A stretch of 38,904 nt of DNA from a virus, in IMG/VR virus record IMGVR_UViG_3300009509_000054, one strand, 5' to 3'. The position numbers and the translations under genes were made by a program. Below are positions 1 through 25,041 of this stretch, one piece after another. The notes under the pieces were generated by a model. The model searched no databases. It was not told the origin of the DNA and worked only from the letters and a program-made list of their open reading frames with translations. Positions within the stretch are counted from its first letter, which is position 1. The number at the start of each line of letters is the position of its first letter.

Positions 1-355
1 ACACGTACTTCTTTACTCCGGCTTCATACGCAGAATGAGTACAATGCAAACCAATAAGCATATTATCATAAAACATCTTACCGGGATTGTCTCTATTCAA
101 CCCTATCCCGCCGACAAAAGCGGCCAGGTTAACAACAATATCTGGTTTTGTGTGTGACAACACATTTTTTATACTTTCAGTTTCCCTTAGATCTCTAGCC
201 AATACGTGTACGCCCAATCTATCTCGATGCCAATTCCCTGGCGTGCCTTCAGATTGGCCAACGGCGATGATGTCGCGACCATCATACCCACGCTCCAGCA
301 TCGTTCTAATTAGGGCTGTGCCCAGAAAACCTGTGCCGCCAAATATAACGATCAT
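1..355 (-). CDS. NAD-dependent sugar epimerase/reductase, GDP-L-fucose synthase (GMER)-like; partial, C-terminus runs off the window start
   Basis: The reverse translation from the ATG at 355-353 gives MIVIFGGTGFLGTALIRTML..., a Rossmann GxxGxxG motif. The later stretch VVNLAAFVGGIGLNRDNPGKMFYDNMLIGLHCTHSAYEAGVKK closely resembles the Fcl/WcaG core AAxVGGIxANxxxPAxFxYxNMMIxxNxIHAA. GGAGA lies 8 nt upstream of the ATG. The start overlaps the stop of the next gene as ATGA. Confidence 0.75.
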   Translation of the reverse strand, partial: MIVIFGGTGFLGTALIRTMLERGYDGRDIIAVGQSEGTPGNWHRDRLGVHVLARDLRETESIKNVLSHTKPDIVVNLAAFVGGIGLNRDNPGKMFYDNMLIGLHCTHSAYEAGVKKYV

Positions 356-1275
356 CGTACAGTCTCCAAGATCAGGTTTTTGACTGTTTCGATGGCGGGA
401 TTATTGAGAGAAATACTTGGCGCGTATCCGCACCCTTTCATACTAACGCTATTGGCTATGCCCAACTCGATAATCCTGGGCTGCGGGTTAGCTGCAGCTG
501 CTAGCATTGTGATGCCAGATCCCACCCCAACCACAGCTTTTGCCTTGCTGCATATAGCCGTAGATTGTCGCCACGTTATGCCGCGACAATCTATCGTCCC
601 CTGTATTAGCCCTTCGTGCGCTGCTGCGATGCTGACACATTTTATGCCATGGGTTCCAAGTTGACTGGCTAATTGGCTAAAATGGTTAGCTTGCCAGACT
701 GGCGGCTTTGAATAGCTATGATATTCGAAGACAACCACATTCCTAGCGTGTTTTTCTAGTATTCTATTGGCAAATGCCACATCATCTGGTGCCAATTTAG
801 CTTCAAGGGCTCTCCCGCCTAGCGGCTTTAGATCCCTAATGCCAGCATTGTGTAGGTATTGATCGGCAATTGTCTCGTAGCACCATTTGTTTTGTGGATA
901 TAGTTCACCAAATGGAAATATCGACGCAACGATTTTGATATCGATGCCTTTAGCGTTTTGGATTAGCGGCCACAATGCAAGTCGTTGCTGCGGGCTCGCA
1001 TTGTGGTCCGCTAAAAACAACCCATTAATGTGCGGGTTGTGCTCGTGAATGTTGTGATACCATTGGCCGACTACGAAAGCAATGGCAGCACCAGGATATT
1101 TCAAGCGATAGTGCCTGATCACTGGTGTGAGGTGCAGCGTATCGCCAAGATTCCGTATCTGTTTGATTAGAATTTTTGGCGATCCGTGATGCCTCTTCAG
1201 AAATGCAATCGCCTCTCCAACGGCTCTCCTACTTGCTTCCATATTTCTGTCGCTACTTTTTCTTCCTCTCTTCAA
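352..1275 (-). CDS. Glycosyltransferase family 9 (LPS heptosyltransferase-like)
   Basis: The N-terminus KILIKQIRNLGDTLHLTPVIRHYRLKYPGAAIAFVV matches the GT9 signature (ILIIRxxxxGDxxxxxPxxxxLxxxYPxAxI). The C-terminal GSGITMLAAAANPQPRIIELG resembles the GT9 GNDSGPMHLAA region. The annotated start at 1275 is a TTG; an in-frame ATG lies 11 codons downstream. Confidence 0.7.
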   Translation of the reverse strand: MKRGRKSSDRNMEASRRAVGEAIAFLKRHHGSPKILIKQIRNLGDTLHLTPVIRHYRLKYPGAAIAFVVGQWYHNIHEHNPHINGLFLADHNASPQQRLALWPLIQNAKGIDIKIVASIFPFGELYPQNKWCYETIADQYLHNAGIRDLKPLGGRALEAKLAPDDVAFANRILEKHARNVVVFEYHSYSKPPVWQANHFSQLASQLGTHGIKCVSIAAAHEGLIQGTIDCRGITWRQSTAICSKAKAVVGVGSGITMLAAAANPQPRIIELGIANSVSMKGCGYAPSISLNNPAIETVKNLILETVR

Positions 1276-1447
1276 GCAGGTCCTTCCTTATTTCGCTTGC
1301 CAGCTCGCGGATCCTCAGCATCTTCTTTCTAACCCTTGTGCCAGCCAGTTTCCCGCCACCGATGGCCTTGACATAATCGTCGCAAATCTCCTCGATTATG
1401 CCCTGCATCTCCCCGAGCTTAGTTCCCTGGATCTTTTCCTTTTCCAT
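1253..1447 (-). CDS. Small hypothetical protein (about 64 aa), start placed at the internal Met
   Basis: The ORF 1253-1510 contains MEKEKIQGTKLGEMQGIIEE... preceded by a strong SD: AGGAGGGTGG, a 3-nt spacer, then ATG at 1447. The composition is charged and Lys-rich and looks coding. Confidence 0.4.
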   Translation of the reverse strand: MEKEKIQGTKLGEMQGIIEEICDDYVKAIGGGKLAGTRVRKKMLRIRELASEIRKDLLEERKKK

Positions 1448-2114
1448 TTGCCACCCTCCTATTCCATTCTTCTTTGGTGTATAACTTGGCAGGATTGCCG
1501 ATAGCCACATGGGTGTCTGGAACGTCCTTTGTGACTACAGCACCCATCCCTACGACAACGTTGTGTCCAATGTCTAACTTTTCACGTATCTGTGCACCAG
1601 AACCAATATACGTGCCTTCCCCTATCCTAACCCACCCACCAATTGAGGCATTGGGTGACACCACAGCCAACGACCCTATTATTGCATCATGGCCTACGGT
1701 AGAATTGTAATTGATAAGCACATGTTCGCTAACTATCGAATGGGGCGATACTACTGCGCCAGGAGCAATTACGGAACCAATACCAACAGTCGCTAATGGG
1801 GATACAATAGAACGCGGGTGTATTAGTTTATAAAAATGCCCTACTACTTGCTTCAACATTTTGATTTTTATTTCTGGCTTCCCTGACCCAAGAATGGTGA
1901 CTGCCGATCTATCTAAGTTAACCTCCTCGTGATACTTGTTGATACCAATTGCATCAGAAGAATTGTCATCAACAAACACAATATTGTCTTGCGGAACATG
2001 CAATTCCCGGATGTAAGCTTTAATCTCTCTAGCGAATCCAGATGATCCCATGATATAATACTTGCGCTGAATTAGACTTCCTCCGGGCAACGCATTTGTC
2101 GGCTGTTCTGTCAT
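1419..2114 (-). CDS. Sugar N-acetyltransferase, NeuD/PglD/PseH-like left-handed beta-helix (hexapeptide repeat) family
   Basis: The N-terminal Rossmann-like YYIMGSSGFAREI is followed by a C-terminal run of hexapeptide repeats (VGHDAIIGSLAVVSPNASIGGWVRIGEGTYIGSGAQI...GHNVVVGMGAVV). This is the typical NeuD-family layout. Confidence 0.8.
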   Translation of the reverse strand: MTEQPTNALPGGSLIQRKYYIMGSSGFAREIKAYIRELHVPQDNIVFVDDNSSDAIGINKYHEEVNLDRSAVTILGSGKPEIKIKMLKQVVGHFYKLIHPRSIVSPLATVGIGSVIAPGAVVSPHSIVSEHVLINYNSTVGHDAIIGSLAVVSPNASIGGWVRIGEGTYIGSGAQIREKLDIGHNVVVGMGAVVTKDVPDTHVAIGNPAKLYTKEEWNRRVANGKGKDPGN

Positions 2115-2119
2115 TGTGA

Positions 2120-2148
2120 GTCTATCTACGTTCGAGCCAAACGTAGAT
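2120..2148. promoter_or_regulatory. Perfect 11-bp inverted repeat (CTATCTACGTT / AACGTAGATAG) with a 7-nt loop, in the divergent intergenic region
   Basis: Seen directly: arms at 2120-2130 and 2138-2148. It lies between the divergently oriented acetyltransferase start (2114, minus) and the plus-strand ORF start (2166). It could be an operator-like site or a 5' RNA hairpin. Confidence 0.3.
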
Positions 2149-2165
2149 AGTGATAAATTGGAGAT

Positions 2166-2516
2166 ATGCGAATGCTGTTATATGACCGCATCCTAAGCCA
2201 ATTAAAACCAGACGATTTAAGTCTTCTCAAAAATGAAAATTTGTGCCCGTTGGATCTATTAGAAGAAAACAATCCAACAGACTCGGATACTATCGGATGC
2301 CTGATAAGTAAATTAAGCTGTGTAACTATCCAAATGTGGAATAACCAAGATATTTTATATAGGGTACGATTCATGAGTGCAGAAGAATTTGATAAGATAT
2401 ACTGCAACAACTTGGCTGAACTACACGCGCTTATCAAAAGAGCGTGCGACCTTAATGTCCAGAGAGCGGTGTTGATGGATGCAATAGACAAAAAAGCCCT
2501 AGAAATGAGGCCATAG
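2166..2516 (+). CDS. Hypothetical protein (116 aa) in a reverse-oriented small cassette
   Basis: The plus-strand ORF has protein-like composition and sits between two minus-strand genes. The antisense minus ORF 2126-2572 is low-complexity S/L/R-rich and looks spurious. Confidence 0.4.
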   Translation: MRMLLYDRILSQLKPDDLSLLKNENLCPLDLLEENNPTDSDTIGCLISKLSCVTIQMWNNQDILYRVRFMSAEEFDKIYCNNLAELHALIKRACDLNVQRAVLMDAIDKKALEMRP

Positions 2517-2725
2517 TGGACACACCCGGCAATATCATAGACAAATTGATGACCGTCAATCTTAAGATCCATTACAACCTGCGAAGTGCTAACTACGGAA
2601 AACTCATAAATCTGAATTCACAACGAATTAGCCTTGAGAACGAAATAGATATTCTGATCAACCAAATCGCGAATGGAGCGATTCGAAAAGACGACATAAG
2701 CAGACCGCAGCACAAAACATATTAA
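2516..2725 (+). CDS. Hypothetical protein (69 aa); GTG start overlapping the stop of the preceding ORF. It may be the C-terminal part of the preceding ORF, joined through a -1 shift.
   Basis: The frame of this ORF is already open from 2456. An A6 run at 2490-2495 lies in the 59-nt two-frame overlap. Confidence 0.3.
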   Translation: MDTPGNIIDKLMTVNLKIHYNLRSANYGKLINLNSQRISLENEIDILINQIANGAIRKDDISRPQHKTY

Positions 2726-3057
2726 AATCCACGTCTTCTCAAATCATCGTTGAGTAATTTTAGAAAATTCTCAATTATCGAAAAGTCTCTAGTTGAAACT
2801 GCCGTGTACACCACAGAATTATCCTTCGCTGCTATTTCAAATTTTCTAAGCATTCTATCTAGTATTAACTCACCATCTAAATCAGGATTGAGAGGAGATG
2901 TGAACGACACCCATATCTTGATGTCAAAATCATCGATTTTGGTTACCCTGAATCCAGCGTTCTCGACCACATCGGCTAAGTGATCGAGGGCTACTCTGCT
3001 GGCTCTATATTCAATGTCAAATAGGTCTACTATTATTGGTTCTGGCAGTGGCATCAA
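2722..3057 (-). CDS. Hypothetical protein (111 aa)
   Basis: The ORF has a balanced acidic composition and overlaps the aminotransferase 3' end by 41 nt. No recognisable motif. Confidence 0.45.
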   Translation of the reverse strand: MMPLPEPIIVDLFDIEYRASRVALDHLADVVENAGFRVTKIDDFDIKIWVSFTSPLNPDLDGELILDRMLRKFEIAAKDNSVVYTAVSTRDFSIIENFLKLLNDDLRRRGF

Positions 3058-4132
3058 GCGCTCTTTTGATCTCGCTGCAAACGAAATTTATGTCCGAATT
3101 GCTAAGCAATGGCGACGACGGCAACATTAAACACCGCTCGGATAGCTCTTTAGATACTGGGGCAAACCTCCTATCCCTAAATGGAGGCATCTCGTTCAGC
3201 GGGTAGAACATTGGCCTTGTTTCTACGCCAGCCTCACTCAATGCCGCCGCAAGACTATCCGCTGGCATCTCAGTTTTTACTGTAATCATCCAGTTGCCGT
3301 GTATATGCCCTTCTAGCACTTTTTGCATTTTTATCCTGTTGTCGTTGGCTATGTGCTTGCTGTATTGCTCTGCGACTCTTGCTTTCTCTGCCAGAATTTC
3401 GTCTTTCCTGCAAAGCTGGGCGCACAAAATGGCAGCTTGAATATTCGTCATTCTATAATTATAGCCAATATCAAGATGCCAATATCTTCTATCAAAACTT
3501 TGTGCTTGCCCACGAAGCATCTTGGCATTGGTGGCTAGATCTTTACTTGTTGAAATAACGGCTCCTCCCTCGCCTGACGTAAATGTTTTATTTCCATAAA
3601 ACGAAAGCGCTGACAATCTGCCAAATGTGCCCGTCAGTTTACCATTGATTGTGGCTCCAATGCTCTCGCAAGCATCTTCAATTATAACAAACCCATATGC
3701 TTTGGATAAAGCATCCAATCGGTGCATATCAACGGGGTTTCCCAATAAATGAACCGGAATTACAAAATCAATCTCAGTAGCCTGGCATATTTTCTCTACT
3801 ATGTTGAGATCCATATTCCAAGTATCAGGATCTGAATCTACGAATTCAATTTGCGCCCCACAATAAGAAGGCGCAAATGCGGTGGCTGCATAAGTAGTTG
3901 AAGGAAGCAATACTTTAGCCCCAGGACGCATACCTGCCGCAAGACAGCACAAATGCAGAGCAGTGGTGCCATTGTTTGAGACAACCACGTGCGCGCCATA
4001 GAACTCTGATAAAGCTTCTTCGGCTTGCGCTATGAATTTGCCATTAGATGATATCCATGTAGAATCAATTGCTGACTTTGCATAGTCTTTTTCCAGATTG
4101 GTCAGCCATGGTTCATAAATTGGTATCTTCAC
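3017..4132 (-). CDS. PLP-dependent sugar aminotransferase, DegT/DnrJ/EryC1/StrS family
   Basis: The family PLP-lysine motif SALSFYGNKTFTSGEGG is present (compare SFHxxKxxxxGEGG). The length is about 370 aa, with an N-terminal IxxAL and a DACESIGA-type motif (IIEDACESIGA). Confidence 0.9.
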   Translation of the reverse strand: MKIPIYEPWLTNLEKDYAKSAIDSTWISSNGKFIAQAEEALSEFYGAHVVVSNNGTTALHLCCLAAGMRPGAKVLLPSTTYAATAFAPSYCGAQIEFVDSDPDTWNMDLNIVEKICQATEIDFVIPVHLLGNPVDMHRLDALSKAYGFVIIEDACESIGATINGKLTGTFGRLSALSFYGNKTFTSGEGGAVISTSKDLATNAKMLRGQAQSFDRRYWHLDIGYNYRMTNIQAAILCAQLCRKDEILAEKARVAEQYSKHIANDNRIKMQKVLEGHIHGNWMITVKTEMPADSLAAALSEAGVETRPMFYPLNEMPPFRDRRFAPVSKELSERCLMLPSSPLLSNSDINFVCSEIKRALDATARTNNSRPI

Positions 4133-4464
4133 TTCTCAGCCTTCTTATTCTCACCGCCCAGAATGACTTGTTCACCCTTTTTCTCTTTTTCCTTGGACTT
4201 TTTGGATTGTGTTCCCATACCAGGAGACATTACACGGTATTGTACACCACCAGCATCAGCAATATCCCCAGTGCTTGTCACATCTTCTGGTAGCAGTATT
4301 CTACTGCGCCTTGCTGACTGATGTGCCTGTACGCCATCTTCACCAGATAGTGTTACCATTCTATAGGTCGTTGGGCCTTCCTTAATCGCCCCACGCCACA
4401 CGTATTGGATGAAATCATACCCGAATGAATCCTCGTTGATTCCTTTGACTGCGAAGTATTCCAT
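4129..4464 (-). CDS. Hypothetical protein with a Lys-rich C-terminus
   Basis: The ORF has GAGGTG 5 nt upstream of the ATG and an ATGA overlap with the aminotransferase start. Confidence 0.45.
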   Translation of the reverse strand: MEYFAVKGINEDSFGYDFIQYVWRGAIKEGPTTYRMVTLSGEDGVQAHQSARRSRILLPEDVTSTGDIADAGGVQYRVMSPGMGTQSKKSKEKEKKGEQVILGGENKKAEK

Positions 4465-4502
4465 CTTGCACCTCAGATATGGCCTATGATAGGTTTGAGC
4501 GG

Positions 4503-5594
4503 CTATATAACTTGCTTCTCAGCCTCCGAAGGCGCAATAAATGCTAAGCGCGGCAATAATATTTTCCACTCTTTCGGTTGATCGAAGCAGAATATAATAT
4601 CCTTAAGCCTTTCACCCAACATCGTAATCAGCCGATTAATTCTACCAATACTATCCTCTGTTATTTCTTCAATTATAGCATCGAAGACGTATACCCTTTC
4701 AAATCTCATCGTGGAAAACATATTCAACAATTGTTCAAGAGTAAGCGGCTTCATCATTTTGAATCTATCTGAATTTGATTGAGGAATCCTAGTGATTGCG
4801 CCGTTCTCTATGGTTTCCTTAATGATAATCCACTCATTGGCTTTAGTCAGGCTTACACTTATCCATGGTTCATTGTGGTCAAACGCTTTGCCGTTCAGCG
4901 TGTCTTCTAGAGCGACAATATAAGAATTTCTATTCAGTAATACGGTTGATAGCTCCTTTGCTCTAGCGGCAATAGCAACAGAAGAGCCCTCGATTTCAGA
5001 GCCAATTTTGGCGAAGTCTGGATCAGATCTATAAACAATCCCATTCCATTTATTAATAATAAAATCAGTGAACGGACTAATATCAGGGACAACAGGTATG
5101 GCTCCAGATGCCATTAGTCTAAACATGGGCCTAAGCGAAATATCTTTATTCCCTGCGACTTTGCCAAATGGTGGTTTTTCATACTGCTTGATGCCCGTAG
5201 CATCTACCCAAGGCGCTATTTTATAAACAGGCCTGTTTATGTTTATCGCCTTAAGATAATTCGCGGCCCTATATGCGGTTCGGTGTCCAAAAGCAATAAA
5301 GCAATCATATAGATTGCCAGTAACGGCGATACCAGGATGCAAGTCGTCATTTATGAAACACACTATTCTGTTATCATCATGTATCGATTTTATTTCGTCA
5401 GATAACAAGTGTCTGAAAGCCAGTATGGTGAAACCACGAGCCTTAATTGGTGGCATTATTTTGGGGTTCTTTATATAATCTATCTCACCATCAGCTATCG
5501 ACGGCTCAATGAAGCCATCTAGTAGGCGATAATAATCTAGCGCCTGGTAATAAAATTCGCTCTTATCTGGTTTGGCGAGAATTAAGTAATTCAT
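4503..5594 (-). CDS. Hypothetical protein (363 aa), possibly glycan-related by context
   Basis: A long ORF with an ATGA overlap to the upstream gene. I do not recognise a family. Confidence 0.55.
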   Translation of the reverse strand: MNYLILAKPDKSEFYYQALDYYRLLDGFIEPSIADGEIDYIKNPKIMPPIKARGFTILAFRHLLSDEIKSIHDDNRIVCFINDDLHPGIAVTGNLYDCFIAFGHRTAYRAANYLKAININRPVYKIAPWVDATGIKQYEKPPFGKVAGNKDISLRPMFRLMASGAIPVVPDISPFTDFIINKWNGIVYRSDPDFAKIGSEIEGSSVAIAARAKELSTVLLNRNSYIVALEDTLNGKAFDHNEPWISVSLTKANEWIIIKETIENGAITRIPQSNSDRFKMMKPLTLEQLLNMFSTMRFERVYVFDAIIEEITEDSIGRINRLITMLGERLKDIIFCFDQPKEWKILLPRLAFIAPSEAEKQVI

Positions 5595-6205
5595 TTTTGA
5601 GCCATCTTCTTCCTGAATTGCTGTATTTCTTTGGCGCTGTCTGGTATCTGACTAACGATGTCAGAATATTTCTTTTGCAGGTACTCTATATAGGCTGTGT
5701 CACCTATCACGATATAATCAATAGGCACCTTGTCTATTAGAAATTCTTTGACTTTTTTAAGTAATCTATTGGTGTCATTGTCCACCAAGATCAATTTGTG
5801 TGGAAATGTCAGAACACTCGGCTTGTATGTCTTGAAGACGCCATGCCTATTCATGCCGCTTGGTGGTATCAGCTTTTGTTTTGGTCGTACGCGTTGTGCT
5901 TTGGGGGGAGGTTGATCGTCAAATTCAATTATATAAGGGAATCTCTTTCTTATAAAATCTTCAAAAGTATTCCCAAGTCCTTTTGAGTATAAATCGCGGT
6001 AGATCTGCAGCATCTTATCTTTTGCGTCTTTGCATCCGGTATTGGCTTTTAAGAAAGCCTGAAGATTTTTCAGGATATCCGGCGCTACCTCTCCTAGGAA
6101 TGTATGCCAATCTTGGTTTCTCGACAGACCACAGAAATTGCTAATTCGGAGCCGCATATGATTATTTATCTCCAGAAATGCTGCCAAAGGCATTGTATTT
6201 GACAT
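5591..6205 (-). CDS. Hypothetical protein (204 aa)
   Basis: An ORF in the same transcription direction as the module; it is the first gene of the leftward unit, divergent from the MVP gene. Confidence 0.5.
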   Translation of the reverse strand: MSNTMPLAAFLEINNHMRLRISNFCGLSRNQDWHTFLGEVAPDILKNLQAFLKANTGCKDAKDKMLQIYRDLYSKGLGNTFEDFIRKRFPYIIEFDDQPPPKAQRVRPKQKLIPPSGMNRHGVFKTYKPSVLTFPHKLILVDNDTNRLLKKVKEFLIDKVPIDYIVIGDTAYIEYLQKKYSDIVSQIPDSAKEIQQFRKKMAQK

Positions 6206-6241
6206 TTACCGCCCGATGTCAAGCAGTTAGGAGAATGCTAC

Positions 6242-13823: not shown

Positions 13824-15764
13824 CTATGAAACGTACTTTTTCAAAGCATACAATTTAACATTCGCGTAAACAGTTCTACTGAAGTTCACACGAATTCCAT
13901 TTATCGGTCCAGAGTTAGTCCTCCAGCGAAGACGGCAATCAAATCCCATATTGCGTACTTGATTTCCACCGGACGCCCCATATGTTTCCCAGTCCCATCT
14001 CGAATGACCTCCATAGCGATATGTTCTTTCTGTTTGAAAAAGGACATCGCCATGAAACCAACCCTGTTCATCCCAATTGTTCATTTCACCAATAACCATA
14101 CCGGCAACGTCATTAACTCCATGATACCAAGTGATCGTCGGGTCGATTCCTGTTTGATGCCGAAAAGAGTAGCCAGACGAAGATGTTGAATACCAAGTAG
14201 TGCCGATGCGAGGTTCAAGATAAACATAACCGGACGAACCAGATGCTGCGGAATATCCTTGTATCAAAATGAAAAGCGCTTCGAAGGTATCGCTATCAAC
14301 CCCAGTTACAAATTGCGCATACTGTGATGGGCTTAGGGTAATTTCTTCAATCAGATACCATGCTCCGTGTATGAATTGAAATTGTGATCCATCCCACACC
14401 AACGATTTATTCCGGTCACTTGTTCCAAGAGCCTGACTATAGATTGCATTGCCACGAATGTTGTAAACGCTTGTATCGATTCCGGCACCAGGTACCCCGG
14501 TCAAGGTACTGTTAGAATGACTATGCGTGTCATTGCCAACAACAGTCGCGCTCGGTGTTCCTGTGACGTCTCCTGCCAATGAAAATCCACTATCCAATAG
14601 CACAACTGAACTGCCGCCTACTCCGTCATAATATTTGAGCTTACCTGTGTCAGTCCGATAGAATATGTCCCCACCAACAAGTGATGATGGATCAGAACCA
14701 GCCCCACTAATAGAGATGCGATCGGCTTTTAATACTGTAGATGCCCCAGCACCTACCCATGTCTTTGCATAGATATAGTCTGGCCTATTGGCCCCAGAGG
14801 CTCCGATATTGCCACCGCCATCCGTATTCCATAGCAGATTCTTTGAAGAGCCAACAACAGTGATGCCCTCAGTGTACAATGGTCCTAGCACTGGGTCTCC
14901 GACTACCCCGCCCACAGCATCCCAGGTGGACCCATCGCCGCCCACTTGTAACAAATCATTTGTGGTGCGTATCGGGTTCAGTATTCCTGAGCTAGTGCTA
15001 AGTAGGGTGAAGGCCCCGCCAGCGGCTCCATCATAATATCTTAGCGCCCCGCTATCCGTCCTATACCAAATGTCGCCTGCGACTGGCAAAGATGGATCAG
15101 AACCAGCACCAGTAAACGAAATACGATCACTTCTAATGTAAACAGACGCCCCAACTTTTATACTACCCGTGCCAACGAGCTCGACATCTGGATTATCGAC
15201 GGCATTGCCGAGCCATATTTTCTTGGTGTTGGCGCTACCAATGTTGACATCGCCATTTTCCCCAGCACCCAACCCACCACTTATGCCTCCTGGGCCACCG
15301 TTAATATTAGCGTCACCGCCAGTACCACCTGGGTAAGCTAAACTTCCAGCACCACCCGCACCACCAGCAACTTGGCTATACCCACCCGTACCAGGAACTT
15401 CCCCAGGCCCTAAACCAGCCGCGCCAGCGTCACCGCCAGTTATAAGTAATGGGCCACCCTCACCACCAGCTAAACCGCCTCCGCCATCACCAGCCGGACC
15501 CCCAGAGATACTTAATTCATAGCCCGCAATGCCGCTGGAAGTTTGTTTAGCCTTGATGTCCATCTGTCCCTGTGGCTGTATATCAAGGCCGTCAGCAATA
15601 GTCAAATTAGCGCCGGAGATACTAACGCCATTAGATGCATTCACCGACCCAGATGCATCAATACCAGTGAAATATATTGTATCCGGAATGCGTCTATCAG
15701 ATAGGCCACCGAGATTGCGTTTCTCGCCAGCTACGTCATTTAAACAAACTACATGAACTGTCAT
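13824..15764 (-). CDS. Tail fibre protein with phage-tail-fibre repeats (Pfam Phage_fiber_2-like) and a Gly-rich region
   Basis: Two copies of a roughly 42-aa repeat are present: RSDRISFTGAGSDPSLPVAGDIWYRTDSGALRYYDGAAGGAFTLL and KADRISISGAGSDPSSLVGGDIFYRTDTGKLKYYDGVGGSSVVLL. There is also a long Gly-rich stretch, GGGGLAGGEGGPLLITGGDAGAAGLGPGEVPGTGG.... Confidence 0.75.
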   Translation of the reverse strand: MTVHVVCLNDVAGEKRNLGGLSDRRIPDTIYFTGIDASGSVNASNGVSISGANLTIADGLDIQPQGQMDIKAKQTSSGIAGYELSISGGPAGDGGGGLAGGEGGPLLITGGDAGAAGLGPGEVPGTGGYSQVAGGAGGAGSLAYPGGTGGDANINGGPGGISGGLGAGENGDVNIGSANTKKIWLGNAVDNPDVELVGTGSIKVGASVYIRSDRISFTGAGSDPSLPVAGDIWYRTDSGALRYYDGAAGGAFTLLSTSSGILNPIRTTNDLLQVGGDGSTWDAVGGVVGDPVLGPLYTEGITVVGSSKNLLWNTDGGGNIGASGANRPDYIYAKTWVGAGASTVLKADRISISGAGSDPSSLVGGDIFYRTDTGKLKYYDGVGGSSVVLLDSGFSLAGDVTGTPSATVVGNDTHSHSNSTLTGVPGAGIDTSVYNIRGNAIYSQALGTSDRNKSLVWDGSQFQFIHGAWYLIEEITLSPSQYAQFVTGVDSDTFEALFILIQGYSAASGSSGYVYLEPRIGTTWYSTSSSGYSFRHQTGIDPTITWYHGVNDVAGMVIGEMNNWDEQGWFHGDVLFQTERTYRYGGHSRWDWETYGASGGNQVRNMGFDCRLRWRTNSGPINGIRVNFSRTVYANVKLYALKKYVS

Positions 15765-16147
15765 TTATTCAGGCCCTTTTGAGCGGGCTCACGATACAGG
15801 AAAAACTCTCCGTTGCTTTCTTCCTTTATGACATCTTGTGGCCCGACTAACAAATGTCCAATATCAGCTTTCTTCTCAAAAGAAAGAGCATATCGCCTAA
15901 GCCTAGCAATTTCCTTATCTTTGGCGGCCAAATCCTGCGTTAATTTTGCATTATCTTCTCGCAAGGTAGCAATTTCATCATATAATGCGACATTGCTTTC
16001 TTTTAGACTAAATAGGCGCACTTTAAGTGCGTCCGTTTCCGAAAGTTTTTCTTTGTTCTGTGGCGCTTTAACTGCATCTATTTCGGGAAGTTTTTGTTCC
16101 GCTTCAAGCGCACTATCCGAGGCAAGTTTTCCCTTATTCTGTGTCAC
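15761..16147 (-). CDS. Coiled-coil protein (128 aa), possibly a fibre assembly or chaperone protein
   Basis: It has a heptad-rich KEIARLRR / LREDNAKLTQDLAAKDKE region and ATGA coupling on both sides. Confidence 0.45.
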   Translation of the reverse strand: MTQNKGKLASDSALEAEQKLPEIDAVKAPQNKEKLSETDALKVRLFSLKESNVALYDEIATLREDNAKLTQDLAAKDKEIARLRRYALSFEKKADIGHLLVGPQDVIKEESNGEFFLYREPAQKGLNK

Positions 16148-17922
16148 AACTTCACTCCTTCCACAAAGAGACTTATATCTGGAAATGTATCTATGGTTTC
16201 CTTGGTTATTTTATTGTTGCCGCTATCGCGAAATCTTCTCCTGGAGGCTTTAAACCCAACAGCCTCTAATTCGGAGCATATCATGTCGCGGTCATATGCC
16301 GACAAGTGGTTAGGAGCTATCAATGACCAAAACTTTTCTATTTGCGATGGTGCTGCATGGCATCCCTCATTAATTTCATCGAATTCACTTAATGCTCCTT
16401 CGTTGTACATTTGCATTAATTTCCTGGCGTCTGGGCATGACAATCGTAAAACTCCTCCTGGTTTTAAAACTCTATAGCACTCAGCAACGAATGCCCTTCC
16501 ATCGTCATATGTAAGATGTTCGATTAAATGGCTAGAAAAAATAATATCAACAACATTATCGTCATATGGCAAACCCTTGCGGACGTCGTGCTGCTTAAAT
16601 AAATATCCATAATTAGACGCAAAAGACGATAAATCATAAATATCGATGTTCGTCCACCCATAATAAAACATGACCGAAAAAGACCCCAAATTCAATTTCA
16701 CGGTGCCATCTGGTGGAGGAATAATAGGGCCTTGTTCCAAATCGTTTTTATGGATAACCTCATGGCTATGTGGCAATTTGCTAGCCCACCATCCCAACGG
16801 CTTCAATGTACAATGTGTTTTGTCAAATCCATCATCGTTATCGCCCGGATCTATTCCATGAAGACCCCTCTTTGATACTCTTGCCATCTCTTCTATCACG
16901 TTTTCTATCTCATTTTCTGGAATGTGTTCCAGAACTGCGCAACTAAAAATGAGATCAAATTGCTTATCCTTGATAGGCCATGGAATTTGTGTTATGTCCC
17001 ATACCTGAACCTCATCAGTTGCACGAGTCAAATAACAGTGTTTTGAAATATCGAGGCCACCAACGGTTACGCCATGATCACACAGACGCTTTAGAGTATA
17101 TCCCCTTGCGCAACCAATTTCCAACACACTTCCCGGATTACGCTCCATAATTTTCTCAAAAGTCTTGAAATGAGCAGGATAATCCCAATAACCTTCTCTC
17201 GCGTAACCACCCCAAACCCCACCGCCTTCAAAATATTTCCTATCGAACGCTATACATCTCTCGTTATGCGACAACAGTTTCCTATCATTTTTCTGCTCAA
17301 TTACCTTCCTCGGCTTAGAAAAAACCAATAATACCTCCTGTGGCCGAACAAAAGATGATAATTCAATGCTGAACAATAGTCCGGCATCATAGCCTAAACT
17401 AATCCACCACGATGGGTGCATAAATGTTTGGTGGCTAGGATCACCATATGGAACATTTTTATCGTCCAATGAGATTGGAACATTAATTAGTACATGACTT
17501 TTGGTGATGCGCGCCATTTCTTTAATAATAGATGGCATAAACTCAATTTCTACATGCTCAAGCGTCTGAGAAGAAAAGACACAATCAAATGATTCTGAAT
17601 CGTATGGAATGCCATCGCGTATATCCGCCATCTTCAATTTGCCAGCGACATTTTTGTCGCAATTTTCAATAGCCCATCGGCTTATATCACATCCTTCAGC
17701 ATTAATTCCACGTTCCATAAACGCCCGGCATGTAAAACCTAACGCGCAGCCAACATCGAGTACAGATGCGGGTTTGAGGTTTTGGGCAACAAAAGAGGCT
17801 AAACGGTTACAATTATCCTCCTCGTTCTCCCAGATAAATGGAAGTGCGTACCCACTCTTAGCGCCTGGCTTGAAGTAAGACTCGTCAAAATAATCAGCAG
17901 AGATCCGTTTTTCCATCACCAT
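16144..17922 (-). CDS. Multi-domain class I SAM-dependent methyltransferase (three tandem MTase-like domains)
   Basis: Three motif-I-like segments are present: VLDVGCALGFTCRAF...GCDIS, VLEIGCARGYTLKRL...GLDIS, and a third Methyltransf_11/23-like domain ending in LKPGGVLRLSCPD. Confidence 0.8.
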   Translation of the reverse strand: MVMEKRISADYFDESYFKPGAKSGYALPFIWENEEDNCNRLASFVAQNLKPASVLDVGCALGFTCRAFMERGINAEGCDISRWAIENCDKNVAGKLKMADIRDGIPYDSESFDCVFSSQTLEHVEIEFMPSIIKEMARITKSHVLINVPISLDDKNVPYGDPSHQTFMHPSWWISLGYDAGLLFSIELSSFVRPQEVLLVFSKPRKVIEQKNDRKLLSHNERCIAFDRKYFEGGGVWGGYAREGYWDYPAHFKTFEKIMERNPGSVLEIGCARGYTLKRLCDHGVTVGGLDISKHCYLTRATDEVQVWDITQIPWPIKDKQFDLIFSCAVLEHIPENEIENVIEEMARVSKRGLHGIDPGDNDDGFDKTHCTLKPLGWWASKLPHSHEVIHKNDLEQGPIIPPPDGTVKLNLGSFSVMFYYGWTNIDIYDLSSFASNYGYLFKQHDVRKGLPYDDNVVDIIFSSHLIEHLTYDDGRAFVAECYRVLKPGGVLRLSCPDARKLMQMYNEGALSEFDEINEGCHAAPSQIEKFWSLIAPNHLSAYDRDMICSELEAVGFKASRRRFRDSGNNKITKETIDTFPDISLFVEGVKL

Positions 17923-18953
17923 CCCCCCGTGTCAATCGCTTCGTATGCTAATTCTTCATAACGATCAATCATTTTGGCGACAGAAAATTGTGCTGCCCAT
18001 TCAATACAATCGGCAGCTTTAAGTGAAGCCACGGCATTAGATTTTATTAACTCTTCTACTTCCGTTTGCGTTTTAACTAAGAATCCAGTAACGCCTTGTT
18101 TTATGGTCTCACGCATAGCGCCATTGTCAAATGCTATTACTGGCATTCCGCACAGCTGGGCTTCAACCGGAGCCAATCCAAATGGCTCCCTGAACAAGAG
18201 ATTCATATGCAGCAGCGCTTTGTTTGTGGAAAAGAACTCAACGGCGCGCTCTCTGTTTACTCCACCCCAATATTTAATATTGTGCTGGGCTTGCATTTGC
18301 ATTCTCTGTGCTAATTGCGGCTCTCCAGTTAACTTATCGTCACCGACAAGATCAAGCCCTATGCGCAACTTTCTAGCTATATCGGTTGCTATCTGGGGGC
18401 CTTTAATACGACTGATACGAGCCAGAAATAAATATCGATCATTTCTTTTGACATCCTTGGCTTGTTTATAAAAATCAACGTCAACACCATTATATGCGGT
18501 CCTGGTAGGGACTCCCCATGCCTCCATCGCGCCAACGCCTTGATCATCAGAAATCGACACTATACATGGATGCAGTATTGGTGGTGCAGATTTATACATT
18601 GTGTCGGCGGGGGCATGAATAACCCCAAGAATAGGAGTTGCCAGACGCCCCTCGATTCTCAACATATACGACCATTTCTCCCACGAATTGTCTATAATCA
18701 CATCGAAATTTGGCAGTTTATCCCAATACCCAGAATAAGCTTGTTTCTCTGACTCATTCAATGTTGTTCCATGGAGCAACACACCATCTGGTGGCGTCGA
18801 ACCTCGCGGCGCAACGAGCAGCACGGTGTGCCCTCGCCTAGAAAGCCCGCGTGCTTGCTGCCATGCAACCATTTCTAAACCAGAGTATCCTGGCGGTGGG
18901 CAAGTAATCACAGTGGTAGAAATAATGCAGATTTTAAGCTTTTTTTTGTTCAT
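17916..18953 (-). CDS. Glycosyltransferase, GT4 (GT-B fold) family
   Basis: The C-terminal EPFGLAPVEAQLCGMPVIAFDNGAMRETI matches the GT4 E-x7-E / retaining GT-B donor-binding motif. The N-terminus KICIISTTVITCPPPGYSGLEMVAWQQARGLSRRGHTV is also typical of the family. Confidence 0.8.
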   Translation of the reverse strand: MNKKKLKICIISTTVITCPPPGYSGLEMVAWQQARGLSRRGHTVLLVAPRGSTPPDGVLLHGTTLNESEKQAYSGYWDKLPNFDVIIDNSWEKWSYMLRIEGRLATPILGVIHAPADTMYKSAPPILHPCIVSISDDQGVGAMEAWGVPTRTAYNGVDVDFYKQAKDVKRNDRYLFLARISRIKGPQIATDIARKLRIGLDLVGDDKLTGEPQLAQRMQMQAQHNIKYWGGVNRERAVEFFSTNKALLHMNLLFREPFGLAPVEAQLCGMPVIAFDNGAMRETIKQGVTGFLVKTQTEVEELIKSNAVASLKAADCIEWAAQFSVAKMIDRYEELAYEAIDTGGW

Positions 18954-19585
18954 GGCGATAACGGCGAAAGGCCCCTTTCGTCAGCAATAGAGAACCCAAG
19001 ATGCTGGCATCTAATCGAGGTGTCCACTACAATGTCAAATCCAGCTCTTCTCGCCTTCCTTGAAAAGGCGAAGTCTTCGCTGCACTTTTCTTCTTCTGGA
19101 ACATCATTACGATCCAGAAGCCACTCGAACCATGGTTTGGCGACAGTTTCCAATACTCTCCTGTTAATTAAAAGACACCCACTACCAACAAGATCAACCT
19201 TAACAAGGGTCCCAGGTGTGAATTGTGTCGCCCAAACAGGCCTTGGGCTGGCCTCTAACATCATAACTGGTACGATAGGTTCTGCGCGCCTATAATATAG
19301 ACCACTTACTATGTCGCGCTCATGCGCCATGAGACGAAGAATGGTGTCATGCGGAGCAACTACGTCGTCATCCAAAAAGAATAACCACCTAAATTCACCT
19401 GACAATGCTTTTTCAACACCTGTGTTCCTTGCGTGGTCAAATGGCATGCCAGACAGAAACATATAATTAGAACCTGGGGGCAATTGGATGTTCCTGAAAC
19501 TTTGTGCCCAGACAGATGGGACAGTGCCGCGAGTCAATATGACCATCAATACGTTGGGGGTCTGGAATTCCCACGCTCCTGGCAT
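18950..19585 (-). CDS. Probable GT2-like (GT-A fold) glycosyltransferase
   Basis: It has an FFLDDDVVAPHD DxD-type motif and a downstream acidic EDFAFSRKARRAGFDI segment. It is ATGA-coupled to the GT4 gene. Confidence 0.55.
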   Translation of the reverse strand: MPGAWEFQTPNVLMVILTRGTVPSVWAQSFRNIQLPPGSNYMFLSGMPFDHARNTGVEKALSGEFRWLFFLDDDVVAPHDTILRLMAHERDIVSGLYYRRAEPIVPVMMLEASPRPVWATQFTPGTLVKVDLVGSGCLLINRRVLETVAKPWFEWLLDRNDVPEEEKCSEDFAFSRKARRAGFDIVVDTSIRCQHLGFSIADERGLSPLSP

Positions 19586-19608
19586 AATATATATCTCTCA
19601 AATATGGA

Positions 19609-19642
19609 AAGAGGGGGATGCTAGGTGTAACATCCCCCTCTT
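19609..19642. terminator. 12-bp perfect stem (AAGAGGGGGATG / CATCCCCCTCTT) with a 10-nt loop, followed on the minus strand by a moderately U-rich stretch; intrinsic terminator or attenuator downstream of the fibre gene
   Basis: Seen directly. It lies between the fibre gene stop at 19654 and the start of the GT2-like gene at 19585. Confidence 0.55.
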
Positions 19643-19653
19643 ATATACAATCA

Positions 19654-20484
19654 CTAGACTATTGGAGCATTGCCATATATCTGGGTTTCCACATCTACTG
19701 CGATTTTTGTCACTCCTGCTACCATCCCCATCCATTGAATCCAAGTGCCGGACGCTGATGGTGATTGTACGGTCGGCCACCCGCCAGAGCCAACGAATAC
19801 TGTCTTTCTGACATCTCCAGTAAAATCATAAACAGCGGCAAGCTCAATAACCCCCTGTGTGTAGACAGCTCCAGCATCACCCGATGCAATGGTGGCATTT
19901 AGAAAGCCAATCGCTGGCATCCTATCTGGATCAAATGCATTGGCTGTAATAAGTTCGCCGTTAGAATTGATGCTGACACAATAGCCACCGCTTATTGGCT
20001 CGGCTGCCGTATAATTAGTATCATCAATGGTAGCGCGTGCAAATTCTACGGTTATCCCAGACGCCAGGTGGGCGCTGCCCACCTGTCCTGAAGCAATATT
20101 GCCAGATGATATGGCCCCCTCACCAATCTTGCCGGATGTGATGGCACCAGACGCGACATTGCCAGTATTAACTGATCCGTCGCCCAGTTTACCAGATACT
20201 ATGGCACCAGATGCTACATTGCCAGTATTAACTGATCCGTCGCCCATCTTGCCGGATGTGATGGCACCGGATGAGACATTGACCGTATTGACTGACCCAT
20301 CACCCAGCTTGCCAGAAACGATGGCTCCGGACGAGACATTGACCGTATTGACTGACCCATCGGCCAATTTACCAGATGCGACAGCGCCGGACGCCAGCAG
20401 TTTATCTGCAGCAGTAAACTCGCCAATCTGTTTGGCAAATTGGCCAGATTGAGGATAAAATTTAATACCATATGCGTCAGCCAT
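19654..20484 (-). CDS. Fibre/spike protein with five tandem 20-aa repeats (SGAIVSGKLGDGSVNTVNVS)
   Basis: The protein-level repeat occurs five times. It corresponds to the 60-nt tandem repeat seen directly in the DNA. Confidence 0.7.
   Translation of the reverse strand: MADAYGIKFYPQSGQFAKQIGEFTAADKLLASGAVASGKLADGSVNTVNVSSGAIVSGKLGDGSVNTVNVSSGAITSGKMGDGSVNTGNVASGAIVSGKLGDGSVNTGNVASGAITSGKIGEGAISSGNIASGQVGSAHLASGITVEFARATIDDTNYTAAEPISGGYCVSINSNGELITANAFDPDRMPAIGFLNATIASGDAGAVYTQGVIELAAVYDFTGDVRKTVFVGSGGWPTVQSPSASGTWIQWMGMVAGVTKIAVDVETQIYGNAPIV
20095..20400. repeat. About 5 tandem copies of a 60-nt unit (consensus approximately GCCAGTATTAACTGATCCGTCGCCCAGCTTGCCGGATGTGATGGCACCAGACGAGACATT) inside the fibre CDS
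   Basis: Seen directly: consecutive 60-nt blocks starting at 20161, 20221, 20281 and 20341 are near-identical. The blocks at 20101 and before are more diverged. Confidence 0.85.
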
Positions 20485-24333: not shown

Positions 24334-25041
24334 TTATATTTTACTAGCTAATATCTCTGATATGCCAGGTCTGGCAAACCATTTTTCGCTTTCTTCATTA
24401 AATTCTTTTCTAGTTATTCTGCCATCTAGCTTATCGTCTCCACTGACTTTGAGAATCCTAGTGGCACACCAGCGGTGTGGCACAAGAGTTTCAATGTCGC
24501 GAGCACCGACTAATTTCTCCCCATGGCGCAAAGCAGCTTGAGATACCATAACCCCAGAATCGAATAGCTGGCCACTCTTCTTCACCAGCGCAAAACTTGG
24601 CTTGCCGATTCTAAGAATGGTTGGATATTCGAACAACATACAAGCAGGGTGCAGGTAGTGTGGATCACGGAAATGCTCATAACCGACTGCGAAATTTTTG
24701 CCACGTTGGTTGTTAAGCTCTGATAACCACCCCTTTTGTGCGGCATAAGCGTCGGAGTCAATAGTGCAGACCAATCTAGTCTTTATTAGACCGCTCCTGT
24801 ACAACACTTGGTCAATGGCCCTGCCATGCTCCGATGCAGATTGTTTAACTTTACGAGATAGTAGGTGTATTTTGCTAGCTTTACCAAACGGAAGAAGATA
24901 TTCAAATGAGCCATCGGTGGAGCCGTTATCAACCACTATGAGTCTAAAGGGCATGTTTGTGTTACAGAATATGGATTTTACGCATAGCTCTATGAATGGC
25001 TTGGTATTATAGTTGACAGCTATAATTGTGACATCGGCCAT
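24334..25041 (-). CDS. Glycosyltransferase family 2 (GT-A fold)
   Basis: The N-terminus VTIIAVNYNTKPFIELCVKSI...RLIVVDNGSTDGS is the canonical GT2 start, including the DNGSTD motif. Confidence 0.8.
   Translation of the reverse strand: MADVTIIAVNYNTKPFIELCVKSIFCNTNMPFRLIVVDNGSTDGSFEYLLPFGKASKIHLLSRKVKQSASEHGRAIDQVLYRSGLIKTRLVCTIDSDAYAAQKGWLSELNNQRGKNFAVGYEHFRDPHYLHPACMLFEYPTILRIGKPSFALVKKSGQLFDSGVMVSQAALRHGEKLVGARDIETLVPHRWCATRILKVSGDDKLDGRITRKEFNEESEKWFARPGISEILASKI

Follow-up and report, generated by a model that had tools for sequence, protein, structure and literature searches.

A phage gene block of nucleotide-sugar tailoring enzymes and glycosyltransferases, conserved across a diverged lineage

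Giant-virus fibril glycosylation clusters combine viral nucleotide-sugar tailoring enzymes with several glycosyltransferases and methyltransferases. Phage carriage of sugar-tailoring gene sets is also already known: gmd, fcl and perosamine-synthetase (rfbE) AMGs have been found on viral contigs (PMC8226683), mycobacteriophages provide an example of virion glycosylation (cited in PMC12619734), and there is recent precedent for phage DNA as a sugar target (bioRxiv 10.1101/2023.12.21.572611; PMC13326640), including the arabinosyl-5hoC hypermodification of RB69/DLP3 (PMC13326640). The gene content reported for the 'Moraphages', aquatic metagenomic jumbo phages of Bacteroidota, includes a histone-H1-like protein (PF07432) and four core orthogroups of glycosyltransferases (PMC12619734). 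Huge phages and cyanophages likewise carry Fcl-like genes, in one case beside a DegT gene (LR756502).

The window analysed here is a 38,904-nucleotide stretch of viral DNA. A phage module for tailoring nucleotide sugars and transferring them occupies the minus strand of its positions 1–6205. Three tailoring enzymes, all intact, and two glycosyltransferases with a GT-B fold are encoded in this block, which is conserved across a diverged phage lineage.

Organization and conservation of the block

The block contains the N-terminal 118 aa of an SDR reductase, a GT9-fold glycosyltransferase, a NeuD/PglB/VioB-type N-acetyltransferase and a DegT aminotransferase (Table 1). All of the genes named in the first-pass annotation are present at or near its coordinates on the minus strand, and its enzyme classes are correct; the catalytic residues are intact, and none of the module proteins contains a transmembrane segment. 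Two ORFs that it had listed as unknowns, encoding the 363-aa and 204-aa proteins, are both real and conserved; the first now has a GT-B fold, and family searches with the second returned nothing. The Hc1 gene, the 110-aa and 111-aa ORFs and both plus-strand DUF4254-like ORFs were missing from its listing.

Table 1. Predicted genes at positions 1–6205 of the window.
Position	Strand	Product	Length (aa)	Basis or remark
1–355	-	SDR, GDP-L-fucose synthase (Fcl/GMER)-like		N-terminal 118 of 323 codons; remainder past left edge
352–1242	-	Divergent GT9-fold (GT-B) glycosyltransferase	296	Fold comparison and profile homology to GT9
1253–1447	-	Hc1 histone-H1-like protein (basic, DNA-binding family)	64	Pfam PF07432
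1419–2114	-	Left-handed beta-helix N-acetyltransferase, NeuD/PglB/VioB/PerB type	231	TIGR03570
2172–2516	+	DUF4254-like ORF	114	Inverted relative to module; gene call on Logan contigs
2516–2725	+	Second DUF4254-like copy, abridged	69	Family C-terminal PQHKTY motif kept
2722–3054	-	Acidic conserved protein	110	Overlaps DegT 3′ end
3017–4132	-	PLP-dependent sugar 4-aminotransferase, GDP-perosamine synthase/LegC clade	371	PF01041
4129–4464	-	Conserved protein, Lys-rich C-terminal tail	111	48–66% identity, five lineages
4503–5594	-	Divergent GT-B (GT4-like) glycosyltransferase	363	GT-B fold, residues about 1–235
5591–6205	-	Basic protein, pI about 9.5	204	47–71% identity, five lineages

Gene order is kept in relatives with 37–73% protein identity, and the core of the block is retained on contigs of 212 and 331 kb, that of the 331-kb contig consisting of the 363-aa GT-B, DegT, DUF4254 and GT9-like genes. 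Accessory genes in L015 include a pyruvyl transferase, a KdsA-like gene, a GT8 and a cupin, and L016 has a methyltransferase and lacks the acetyltransferase and SDR; such variation in accessory sugar genes is what a diversifying glycan would be expected to show.

The Hc1 protein matches PF07432 at 46.4 bits (cut-off 23.5), and its gene shares 29 nt with the 3′ end of the acetyltransferase gene and is identically positioned in the relatives L009, L011 and L014 (pI 9.2–9.8). In the same three relatives a single 133-aa module-strand gene has 42–45% identity to the 114-aa DUF4254-like ORF, homologues of which in L015 and L016 exceed the PF14063 cut-off; BLASTP gave no direct match between the two copies in the window. 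The acidic 110-aa protein is found in all relatives (47–72% identity) with no matches in Pfam, NCBIfam or PHROG, and family searches with the 111-aa protein returned nothing. The gene for the 204-aa protein lies directly upstream of the GT-B gene in all five lineages, and its end overlaps the GT-B start (5591–5594), so the pair may be co-translated.

Extension of the left edge through a 99.98%-identical contig bears out the prediction that the module continues there, the next 7 kb containing the remainder of the SDR gene, a pair of small ORFs, a thymidylate kinase and a dUTPase. Neither the 4,6-dehydratase nor the nucleotidyltransferase expected by the first-pass annotation is encoded in these 7 kb, and no GDP-mannose 4,6-dehydratase or mannose-1-phosphate guanylyltransferase gene was found in the 46 kb of window plus extension. 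One flank of the block is devoted to nucleotide metabolism. On the other flank, neither a fold nor a family could be recognised for the 598-, 724- and 646-aa proteins, and a structural neighbourhood is therefore not established there. The GT4, GT2 and triple-methyltransferase genes described further along the window are present.

Tailoring enzymes and predicted activated sugars

The 118-aa SDR segment within the window matches Pfam Epimerase (E=1.6e-17), as does the complete 323-aa protein (1.9e-55) recovered from contig L001, which is 99.977% identical to the window. All 18 of its top PDB matches are GDP-L-fucose synthases (best 7ll6, 220 bits). Residues T122, C124, Y151, K155 and H194, which lie outside the window on the L001-derived sequence, correspond to S107, C109, Y136, K140 and H179 of E. 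coli GMER. The aminotransferase (PF01041, 296 bits, E=4.6e-88) is closest among PDB entries to Caulobacter perosamine synthetase (3bn1, 266 bits), followed as the next functional class by WbpE (157 bits), and UDP/dTDP-sugar enzymes reach at most 157 bits; its K182, within SFYGNK, aligns with the Lys mutated in 3dr4. The acetyltransferase matches PglB-ATD (4m98, 89 bits), VioB (75) and PerB (70), with H142 (GHD) aligned to the 4m98 His. Both the PLP lysine and the acetyltransferase histidine, whose loss the first-pass annotation had considered, are therefore present. All three enzymes score below the NCBIfam equivalog cut-offs (267 of 500 bits for the GDP-L-fucose synthase model GDPFucSynFcl, 301 of 420 for LegC, TIGR04181, and 155.7 of 160.8 for NeuD/PglB/VioB, TIGR03570), and substrates are accordingly those of the nearest characterised relatives.

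On this basis the activated sugars made are probably GDP-fucose and GDP-N-acetylperosamine. The nearest relatives of the SDR and the aminotransferase both use GDP-4-keto-6-deoxy-mannose, so a GDP-linked route fits better than the bacillosamine-, legionaminic- or fucosamine-like route first proposed, which is disfavoured by the restriction of the best SDR matches to GDP-L-fucose synthases and by the GDP-perosamine synthase match of the aminotransferase. GDP-4-keto-6-deoxy-D-mannose would come from a GDP-mannose 4,6-dehydratase, either the host's own or one whose gene lies in another part of the phage genome. In one branch the Fcl-like SDR would epimerise and reduce it to GDP-L-fucose; in the other, the perosamine-synthase-like PLP enzyme would aminate C4 and N-acetylation by the NeuD/PerB-like acetyltransferase would then give GDP-N-acetylperosamine or a closely related stereoisomer. 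A branch parallel to the amino-sugar pathway is a likelier role for the SDR than a step in it. A shared substrate also fits the GDP dependence of the LegC model and the presence of PerB among the top acetyltransferase matches; against GDP chemistry, the acetyltransferase is nearer to PglB-ATD and VioB, which are UDP/dTDP-sugar enzymes, than to PerB.

Glycosyltransferases, acceptors and alternative readings

The GT9-like gene is the most conserved in the block, and its product (pI 9.2–9.7) is nearest in fold to 3tov, WaaF and WaaC. However, it is shorter than the GT9 heptosyltransferases (WaaC, WaaF, Veillonella 3tov) and the protein heptosyltransferase TibC (296 versus 320–380 aa), and its PF01075 score is below threshold. 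Its relatives form a separate clade, so far confined to metagenomic contigs of this phage group and without a match among 50,697 catalogued phage records. ADP-heptose is the normal donor of GT9 enzymes, so nothing connects this one with the amino sugars that it was earlier proposed to add. The 363-aa GT-B and GT9-like proteins are equally good candidates for the amino-sugar transferase. The former (pI 5.5–6.8) has an extra C-terminal domain of about 110 aa without assignment, and lacks the EX7E motif, so it may be catalytically non-standard.

The first-pass interpretation stands as far as a phage glycan module is concerned, and is unsupported or needs change on the sugar route, the left-hand partners, the GT9 donor link and serotype conversion. 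The preferred explanation, with a probability of roughly 0.45, is that an uncultivated jumbo phage builds glycans in the cytoplasm with a soluble enzyme module that has the predicted GDP-sugar branches and, as the favoured candidate acceptor, a phage structural protein. Acting together, the GT4-like 363-aa protein, the GT9-like one (perhaps with ADP-heptose from the host as donor) and the products of the GT4, GT2 and methyltransferase genes at 16–25 kb would build a small, methylated hetero-oligosaccharide on an acceptor in the cytoplasm, in the favoured case as virion self-glycosylation, a viable reading that the first-pass annotation also raised. A cytoplasmic acceptor is suggested by the lack of membrane helices in the module proteins and of flippase, polymerase or Gtr genes, which also makes classical serotype conversion unlikely. 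Neither it nor superinfection exclusion, both suggested earlier, is supported: no Wzx, Wzy, Gtr or priming transferase gene was found in the window, and no lysogeny genes were detected.

The setting of the block is phage, not host, and the host flank envisaged earlier is set aside. It is highly improbable that the region is bacterial chromosome, either as host flank or as a cargo island; its enzymes are bacterial in type, capsid, portal and terminase genes are unrecognised in the 38.9-kb window, and the family is absent from an IMG/VR search, but a pattern scan of 185,579 GTDB species genomes yielded no relative of the 363-aa family, and an MVP-like neighbour gene matches only huge-phage genomes (462–735 kb, 44–45% identity). 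Moreover, the ORFans of the window are densely packed on one strand with uniform GC content and accompanied by a tRNA, a CCA-adding enzyme and a homing endonuclease, and syntenic contigs carry a Tail_P2_I baseplate-like giant protein and beta-helix proteins. It is also distinctly unlikely that the product is a di-N-acetylated 2,4-diamino-2,4,6-trideoxyhexose of the bacillosamine or legionaminic-acid precursor type, made from a 4-keto-6-deoxy-HexNAc with the SDR as the pathway's reductase or epimerase. LegC is the top NCBIfam model for the aminotransferase, and the acetyltransferase belongs to the NeuD/PglB/VioB family with PglB-ATD nearest; however, LegC falls below its cut-off, and PseC (216 bits) and PglE-type enzymes (about 130 or less) score below perosamine synthase (266). 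The SDR matches LegB and other 4,6-dehydratases weakly (88–96 bits, versus 267 for Fcl) and retains the GMER Cys/His epimerase pair, and HexNAc 4,6-dehydratase, NeuB/LegI-type synthase and CMP-transferase genes are absent from the window and left extension.

An unlikely reading, though the strongest of the alternatives and the main idea of the first-pass annotation, is that the module sugars and the GT9-like and GT-B enzymes alter the LPS core, O-antigen or capsule of the infected host, blocking superinfection or keeping progeny from adsorbing to debris. The lipid A-Kdo inner core, at the cytoplasmic face, is the typical target of GT9 enzymes, which are soluble and basic, as is the GT9-like protein, whose nearest folds include WaaF and WaaC; a KdsA-like gene adjoins the GT9-like gene in one relative, and the usual reading of fcl, gmd and per genes on viral contigs, those of cyanophages included, is as host-surface AMGs. 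There is a slim chance, left aside in the first-pass annotation, that the GT-B enzymes place the module sugars on a hydroxylated or hydroxymethylated pyrimidine of phage DNA as an anti-restriction measure, which the nucleotide-metabolism flank and the Hc1 DNA-binding gene would fit equally well. However, a thymidylate-synthase homologue, a TET/JBP-type 5mYOX and a cytosine C5-methyltransferase were found neither in the window and its 7-kb left extension nor, on related contigs, in the 10 kb to each side of the block. Resemblance to BshA and T4 enzymes is expected of any GT4-like fold, the 363-aa protein is not basic, and the pyruvyl-transferase and multi-glycosyltransferase content of relatives looks more like a protein- or lipid-linked oligosaccharide.

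Comparison with described systems

The SDR shares with Fcl/GMER (E. coli 1bws/1e6u; 7ll6) the extended-SDR fold, the Rossmann motif GGTGFLG, the Thr/Tyr/Lys triad and the Cys and His epimerisation residues, scoring 187–220 bits against solved Fcl structures and having 37–41% identity to annotated phage fcl genes, including those of the cyanomyophages S-SKS1 and P-SSM2. It differs in an N-terminal insertion of ~15 residues (the Fcl alignment begins at residue 55) and has no neighbouring gmd gene, whereas P-SSM2-type clusters have one. The aminotransferase resembles Caulobacter crescentus Per (3bn1/3dr4/3dr7) in its DegT fold, the PLP lysine in SFxGNK and a full-length 266-bit alignment, and, like Per with PerB (4ea7), it is accompanied by a left-handed beta-helix acetyltransferase with the catalytic His. 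The acetyltransferase gene is two genes away, a distance that the duplicated DUF4254 gene raises to three in this window. However, this acetyltransferase is less close to PerB than to PglB-ATD and VioB, and the pair is not accompanied by O-antigen assembly genes.

As in giant-virus fibril, mycobacteriophage and cyanophage LPS-type AMG toolkits, the block provides its own aminotransferase, N-acetyltransferase and SDR together with several glycosyltransferases and methyltransferases, all soluble, although it belongs to another virus lineage and uses other glycosyltransferase families. It resembles DNA sugar-hypermodification clusters (Pyle et al., bioRxiv 10.1101/2023.12.21.572611) in its GT-B enzymes, which are similar to BshA and T4 glucosyltransferases, and in the adjacency of sugar-nucleotide and nucleotide-metabolism genes, but no 5mYOX, C5-methyltransferase or ThyA-homologue gene was found in the examined sequence. 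The moraphage paper makes no mention of sugar-nucleotide enzymes (PMC12619734), which the block encodes; by the published description, however, the two are alike in the PF07432 protein, the glycosyltransferases, a DnaJ on a related contig and contig sizes of 212–331 kb that fall within the moraphage range.

Gene organization and left extension

The minus-strand genes are tightly packed from the left edge of the window to position 6205, as judged from ORF listing and translation. Family searches confirm the four enzymes named in the first-pass annotation, which are a reductase (SDR) resembling GDP-L-fucose synthases (Fcl/GMER), a GT9-like protein, an acetyltransferase and a DegT aminotransferase; the GT4, GT2 and triple-methyltransferase genes that it placed further along are also real, and together constitute a second glycan-related cluster that probably works with the sugar module. 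The Hc1 gene, two conserved small ORFs and two plus-strand ORFs were absent from its list.

Features of the window, with coordinates in nucleotides
Feature	Coordinates	Strand	Remarks
SDR, first 118 codons	1-355	-	Pfam Epimerase
GT9-like protein, 296 aa	352-1242	-	PF01075 sub-threshold; N-terminal match to heptosyltransferase models
Hc1, 64 aa	1253-1447	-	PF07432; histone-H1-like
Hexapeptide-repeat acetyltransferase	1419-2114	-	TIGR03570 NeuD/PglB/VioB
Two ORFs	2172-2516 and 2516-2725	+
Two conserved small ORFs	2722-3054 and 4129-4464	-
DegT aminotransferase	3017-4132	-	PF01041, E=4.6e-88
Divergent GT-B protein, 363 aa	4503-5594	-
204-aa protein	5591-6205	-	Gene end overlaps start of 363-aa gene
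Major-vault-protein (MVP)-like protein, 830 aa	6242-8734	+	MVP_shoulder, 102 bits; Vault_3
tRNA-Met (CAT)	8788-8864	-	ARAGORN and Rfam, 76 bits
592-aa protein	16144-17922	-	Three tandem class-I SAM methyltransferase domains
GT4	17916-18953		3' end overlapped by 5' end of 592-aa gene (17916-17922)
GT2/Anp1-like, weak	18950-19585		Precedes GT4 gene
GT2, further	24334-25041
CCA-adding enzyme/poly(A) polymerase family, 485 aa	27398-28855	-	HD domain
Homing-endonuclease-like ORF, 199 aa	35802-36401	+	LAGLIDADG type

Contigs encoding the same DegT protein were found by exact-protein look-up. One of these, L001, is 99.977% identical to window positions 1-8849 and runs 7 kb further left, supplying the rest of the SDR for a total of 323 aa. 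Beyond the SDR are two small conserved ORFs, a thymidylate kinase gene (Tmk), a small membrane protein gene and a dUTPase gene, followed by an oppositely oriented block whose last protein has 1288 aa and homologues containing a Tail_P2_I baseplate domain. The module had been predicted to continue past the left edge, with 4,6-dehydratase and sugar nucleotidyltransferase partners; the SDR does continue there but is effectively the module end, and neither partner is present in the 7-kb extension. The small conserved membrane protein (L001 10832-11176, minus strand, roughly 2-2.3 kb beyond the left edge of the window) has a hydropathy peak of 2.72 and weak T2SSF_N similarity, and its gene, on the opposite strand, is always found between the thymidylate kinase and dUTPase genes. 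Promoter and terminator scans gave results at or near shuffle expectation and are uninformative. The window appears to be a complete metagenomic contig, as an identical GT9-like protein is on record for a contig of exactly 38,904 bp, and no terminal repeat was found between its two ends.

Sugar-nucleotide enzymes and glycosyltransferases

The SDR aligns from residue 55 with the GDP-L-fucose synthase equivalog NF047922 at 267.3 bits, below the cut-off of 500. Fcl is nonetheless its best NCBIfam model, with dehydratase and epimerase models at 96 bits or less, and the 18 top-scoring solved structures are GDP-L-fucose synthases without exception (7ll6, 220 bits; E. coli GMER, 187 bits). In the alignment to E. 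coli GMER, residues T122, C124, Y151, K155 and H194 match S107, C109, Y136, K140 and H179, corresponding to the reductase Ser/Thr-Tyr-Lys triad and the Cys/His epimerisation pair, and these motifs are kept in relatives.

Both of the catalytic residues on which the first-pass assignments of aminotransferase and acetyltransferase hinged are present. The aminotransferase matches PF01041 across residues 13-355 (296.3 bits; gathering cut-off 19.8), and K182 within SFYGNK falls on the 3bn1 Lys that the 3dr4 mutant replaces with Ala. The presence of this Schiff-base Lys, which all four relatives also have, marks the protein as an aminotransferase and not a ColD-type dehydratase. Its best PDB match is the Caulobacter GDP-perosamine synthase (266 bits, aligned end to end), with other specificities at 157 bits or less (WbpE 157, WecE and ArnB lower), and among NCBIfam models it scores highest against the GDP-dependent LegC TIGR04181 (301 bits, under the cut-off of 420). 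A ColD/ColC colitose pathway was considered and rejected, as the DegT enzyme keeps the Lys that is absent from ColD and matches ColD at 90 bits versus 266 for Per. The acetyltransferase aligns with model positions 2-202 of 202 of TIGR03570 and narrowly misses its cut-off (155.7 versus 160.8 bits). It contains a Hexapep domain (51.5 bits) and an N-terminal Rossmann-like domain with a weak PglD_N match (20.7 versus 23.4), its nearest structures are PglB-ATD (89 bits), VioB (75) and PerB (70), and H142 (GHD) in the LbH domain aligns with the catalytic His of PglB-ATD 4m98.

In the simplest reading of these alignments, the SDR and the aminotransferase would both draw on GDP-4-keto-6-deoxy-D-mannose, which would be supplied by a Gmd enzyme from either the host or another part of the large genome. 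The first branch would yield GDP-L-fucose, and the second would proceed through GDP-perosamine to its N-acetyl form.

The GT9-like protein scores 17.7 bits against PF01075, below the gathering cut-off of 22, and has a GT9-type GT-B fold together with profile-level homology to true members. Its G33-D34 pair is invariant in 56 homologues and aligns with the GD of 3tov; D34 is at the position of the N-terminal catalytic Asp, D13, of WaaC. The 363-aa protein has the two-Rossmann GT-B fold, and searches for membership of a sequence family (PF00534/PF13692) gave no Pfam or NCBIfam match. The EX7E motif is absent, with an invariant Arg (R159 in RLMA) at the position of its second Glu. The 204-aa protein always accompanies the 363-aa gene.

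Conservation of the block and phage lineage

A common gene order is shared by contigs that encode proteins with 37-73% identity to those of the window. It runs from the 204-aa protein gene through those for the 363-aa GT-B protein, a 111-aa protein, DegT, a 110-aa protein, a DUF4254-like protein, the acetyltransferase, Hc1, the GT9-like protein and the SDR, and then to two small ORFs, Tmk and, further along, dUTPase. The block on the 331-kb contig L016 retains a 382-aa homologue of the 363-aa protein (hhalign 98.7%), DegT, DUF4254, GT9-like and Tmk genes without the acetyltransferase or SDR, and has a Methyltransf_24 gene (region 9472-10035), whereas the 212-kb contig L015 has extra genes (region 5973-8506) for a pyruvyl transferase, a cupin, a KdsA-like DAHP_synth_1 protein and a GT8. 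The gene contents of these two contigs indicate that the core is stable and the accessory sugar genes vary. In another relative, L011, a 113-aa cupin (MannoseP_isomer) is encoded upstream; the L011 aminotransferase, at only 37% identity, is still perosamine-synthase-like (176 bits). A 360-aa protein of L015 was rejected as a homologue of the 363-aa protein (hhalign probability 0.3%).

Two embedded genes accompany the sugar enzymes. The Hc1 protein scores 46.4 bits against PF07432, above the gathering cut-off of 23.5, and its gene lies between those for the acetyltransferase and the GT9-like protein in every relative. The DUF4254-like gene is a single 133-aa gene on the module strand in the related contigs L009, L011 and L014, whereas in the window (region 2115-2725, plus strand) it is inverted and in two copies, one with a full N-terminal and middle part and the other abridged but keeping the C-terminal PQHKTY motif; it is also on the opposite strand in L015 and L016. 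No convincing inverted repeats flank the inverted segment. A perfect 11-bp hairpin (2122-2150) is situated at the junction with the acetyltransferase start.

The MVP-like protein matches only huge-phage genomes of 462-735 kb (LR756500, LR756501 and LR756503; 44-45% identity). Its gene is found at this site in no lineage but that of the window and L009, being missing from L011, L013 and L014, and thus appears to be an insertion adjoining the sugar block. A phage origin of the region is supported by this match, the baseplate and beta-helix proteins carried by syntenic contigs, the tRNA, CCA-adding and homing-endonuclease-like genes, the uniform composition throughout the window, and a GTDB genome scan for the 363-aa family that gave no match. 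Next after the MVP-like gene comes the tRNA-Met gene, which shares 10 nt with the 3' end of a 155-aa ORF (8855-9322); the Rfam scan detected only tRNA, with no intron at the homing-endonuclease-like ORF, which is one of the few plus-strand genes in an otherwise minus-strand window. The 485-aa CCA-adding-family gene is a typical translation-support gene of large phages.

This lineage is otherwise almost unrepresented in PHROGs, INPHARED and IMG/VR. Window positions 1-20000 have no nucleotide match among 50,697 phage records, querying IMG/VR with either the 363-aa protein or the alignment of it returned nothing, and PHROGs comparison of 20 window and neighbour proteins gave solely weak tail-fibre matches for a 796-aa protein. 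The GT9-like, 528-aa and 950-aa proteins are unmatched by tblastn against phages, and PDB sequence searches with the flanking 724-, 598- and 646-aa proteins gave nothing meaningful.

Acceptor of the sugars and relation to known systems

No transmembrane helix is predicted in the module proteins (maximum 19-residue hydropathy 1.73 or less), and the window has no Pfam match to a flippase, polymerase, Gtr or priming transferase. These negatives make classical O-antigen conversion unlikely, serotype conversion having been one of the roles suggested for the module, and they require an acceptor to which cytoplasmic enzymes have access. We favor glycosylation of virion proteins by a soluble, probably GDP-sugar-producing module, with a probability of about 0.45. 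Virion proteins are glycosylated in giant viruses and mycobacteriophages, TibC illustrates that a GT9 fold can modify proteins, and large ORFan proteins surround the further glycosyltransferase and methyltransferase genes. The canonical GT9 acceptor is the lipid A-core, here at the inner leaflet of the host envelope, and the GT9-like protein is suitably basic, but we regard this target as rather unlikely.

Transfer to phage DNA is considerably less probable than either, even though Tmk and dUTPase are neighbours of the block and Hc1 lies inside it, all of which would then belong to a single DNA-centred programme with the block as a DNA-hypermodification cluster. BshA/T4-like GT-B enzymes with partner sugar enzymes do act on DNA (bioRxiv 10.1101/2023.12.21.572611; PMC13326640). 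However, a generator of hydroxylated bases (a ThyA homologue, or a C5-MT plus 5mYOX/TET) was not found in the window (all ORFs of 110 aa or more), in its 7-kb left extension, or on six related contigs within 10 kb to either side of the block. There is only a slim chance that the two phage-specific GT-B enzymes decorate a modified pyrimidine of the phage genome with the GDP-derived 6-deoxy sugars fucose and/or N-acetylperosamine, neither of which, to our knowledge, has been reported on DNA.

By making their own glycans, viruses can mask their virions, change the host surface or shield their DNA, and all three strategies are now emerging in large phages; the acceptor would reveal which of these strategies is used by this barely sampled lineage of jumbo phages. 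The block is compact, conserved and experimentally tractable, with three sugar-nucleotide enzymes and two unusual glycosyltransferases, and identification of the acceptor would assign a function to two glycosyltransferase clades missed by standard annotation, one the phage-specific GT9-like group and the other the 363-aa GT-B family, of which only about 15 members are known.

The aquatic 'moraphages' of Bacteroidota are reported to encode a PF07432 histone-like protein and four core glycosyltransferase groups (2025; PMC12619734). The window group has in common with them PF07432, several glycosyltransferases and DnaJ (the last on a relative), and the window could plausibly belong to the moraphages. 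Among the auxiliary genes already catalogued from phages are fcl, gmd and perosamine-synthetase genes (PMC8226683). Cyanophages and huge phages commonly carry Fcl-like genes, one of which adjoins a DegT gene in the 642-kb LR756502. The module extends this known phenomenon and does not reveal a new one; its novelty lies in the lineage, in two glycosyltransferase clades that are poorly annotated, and in the constant linkage to Hc1 and DUF4254 genes.
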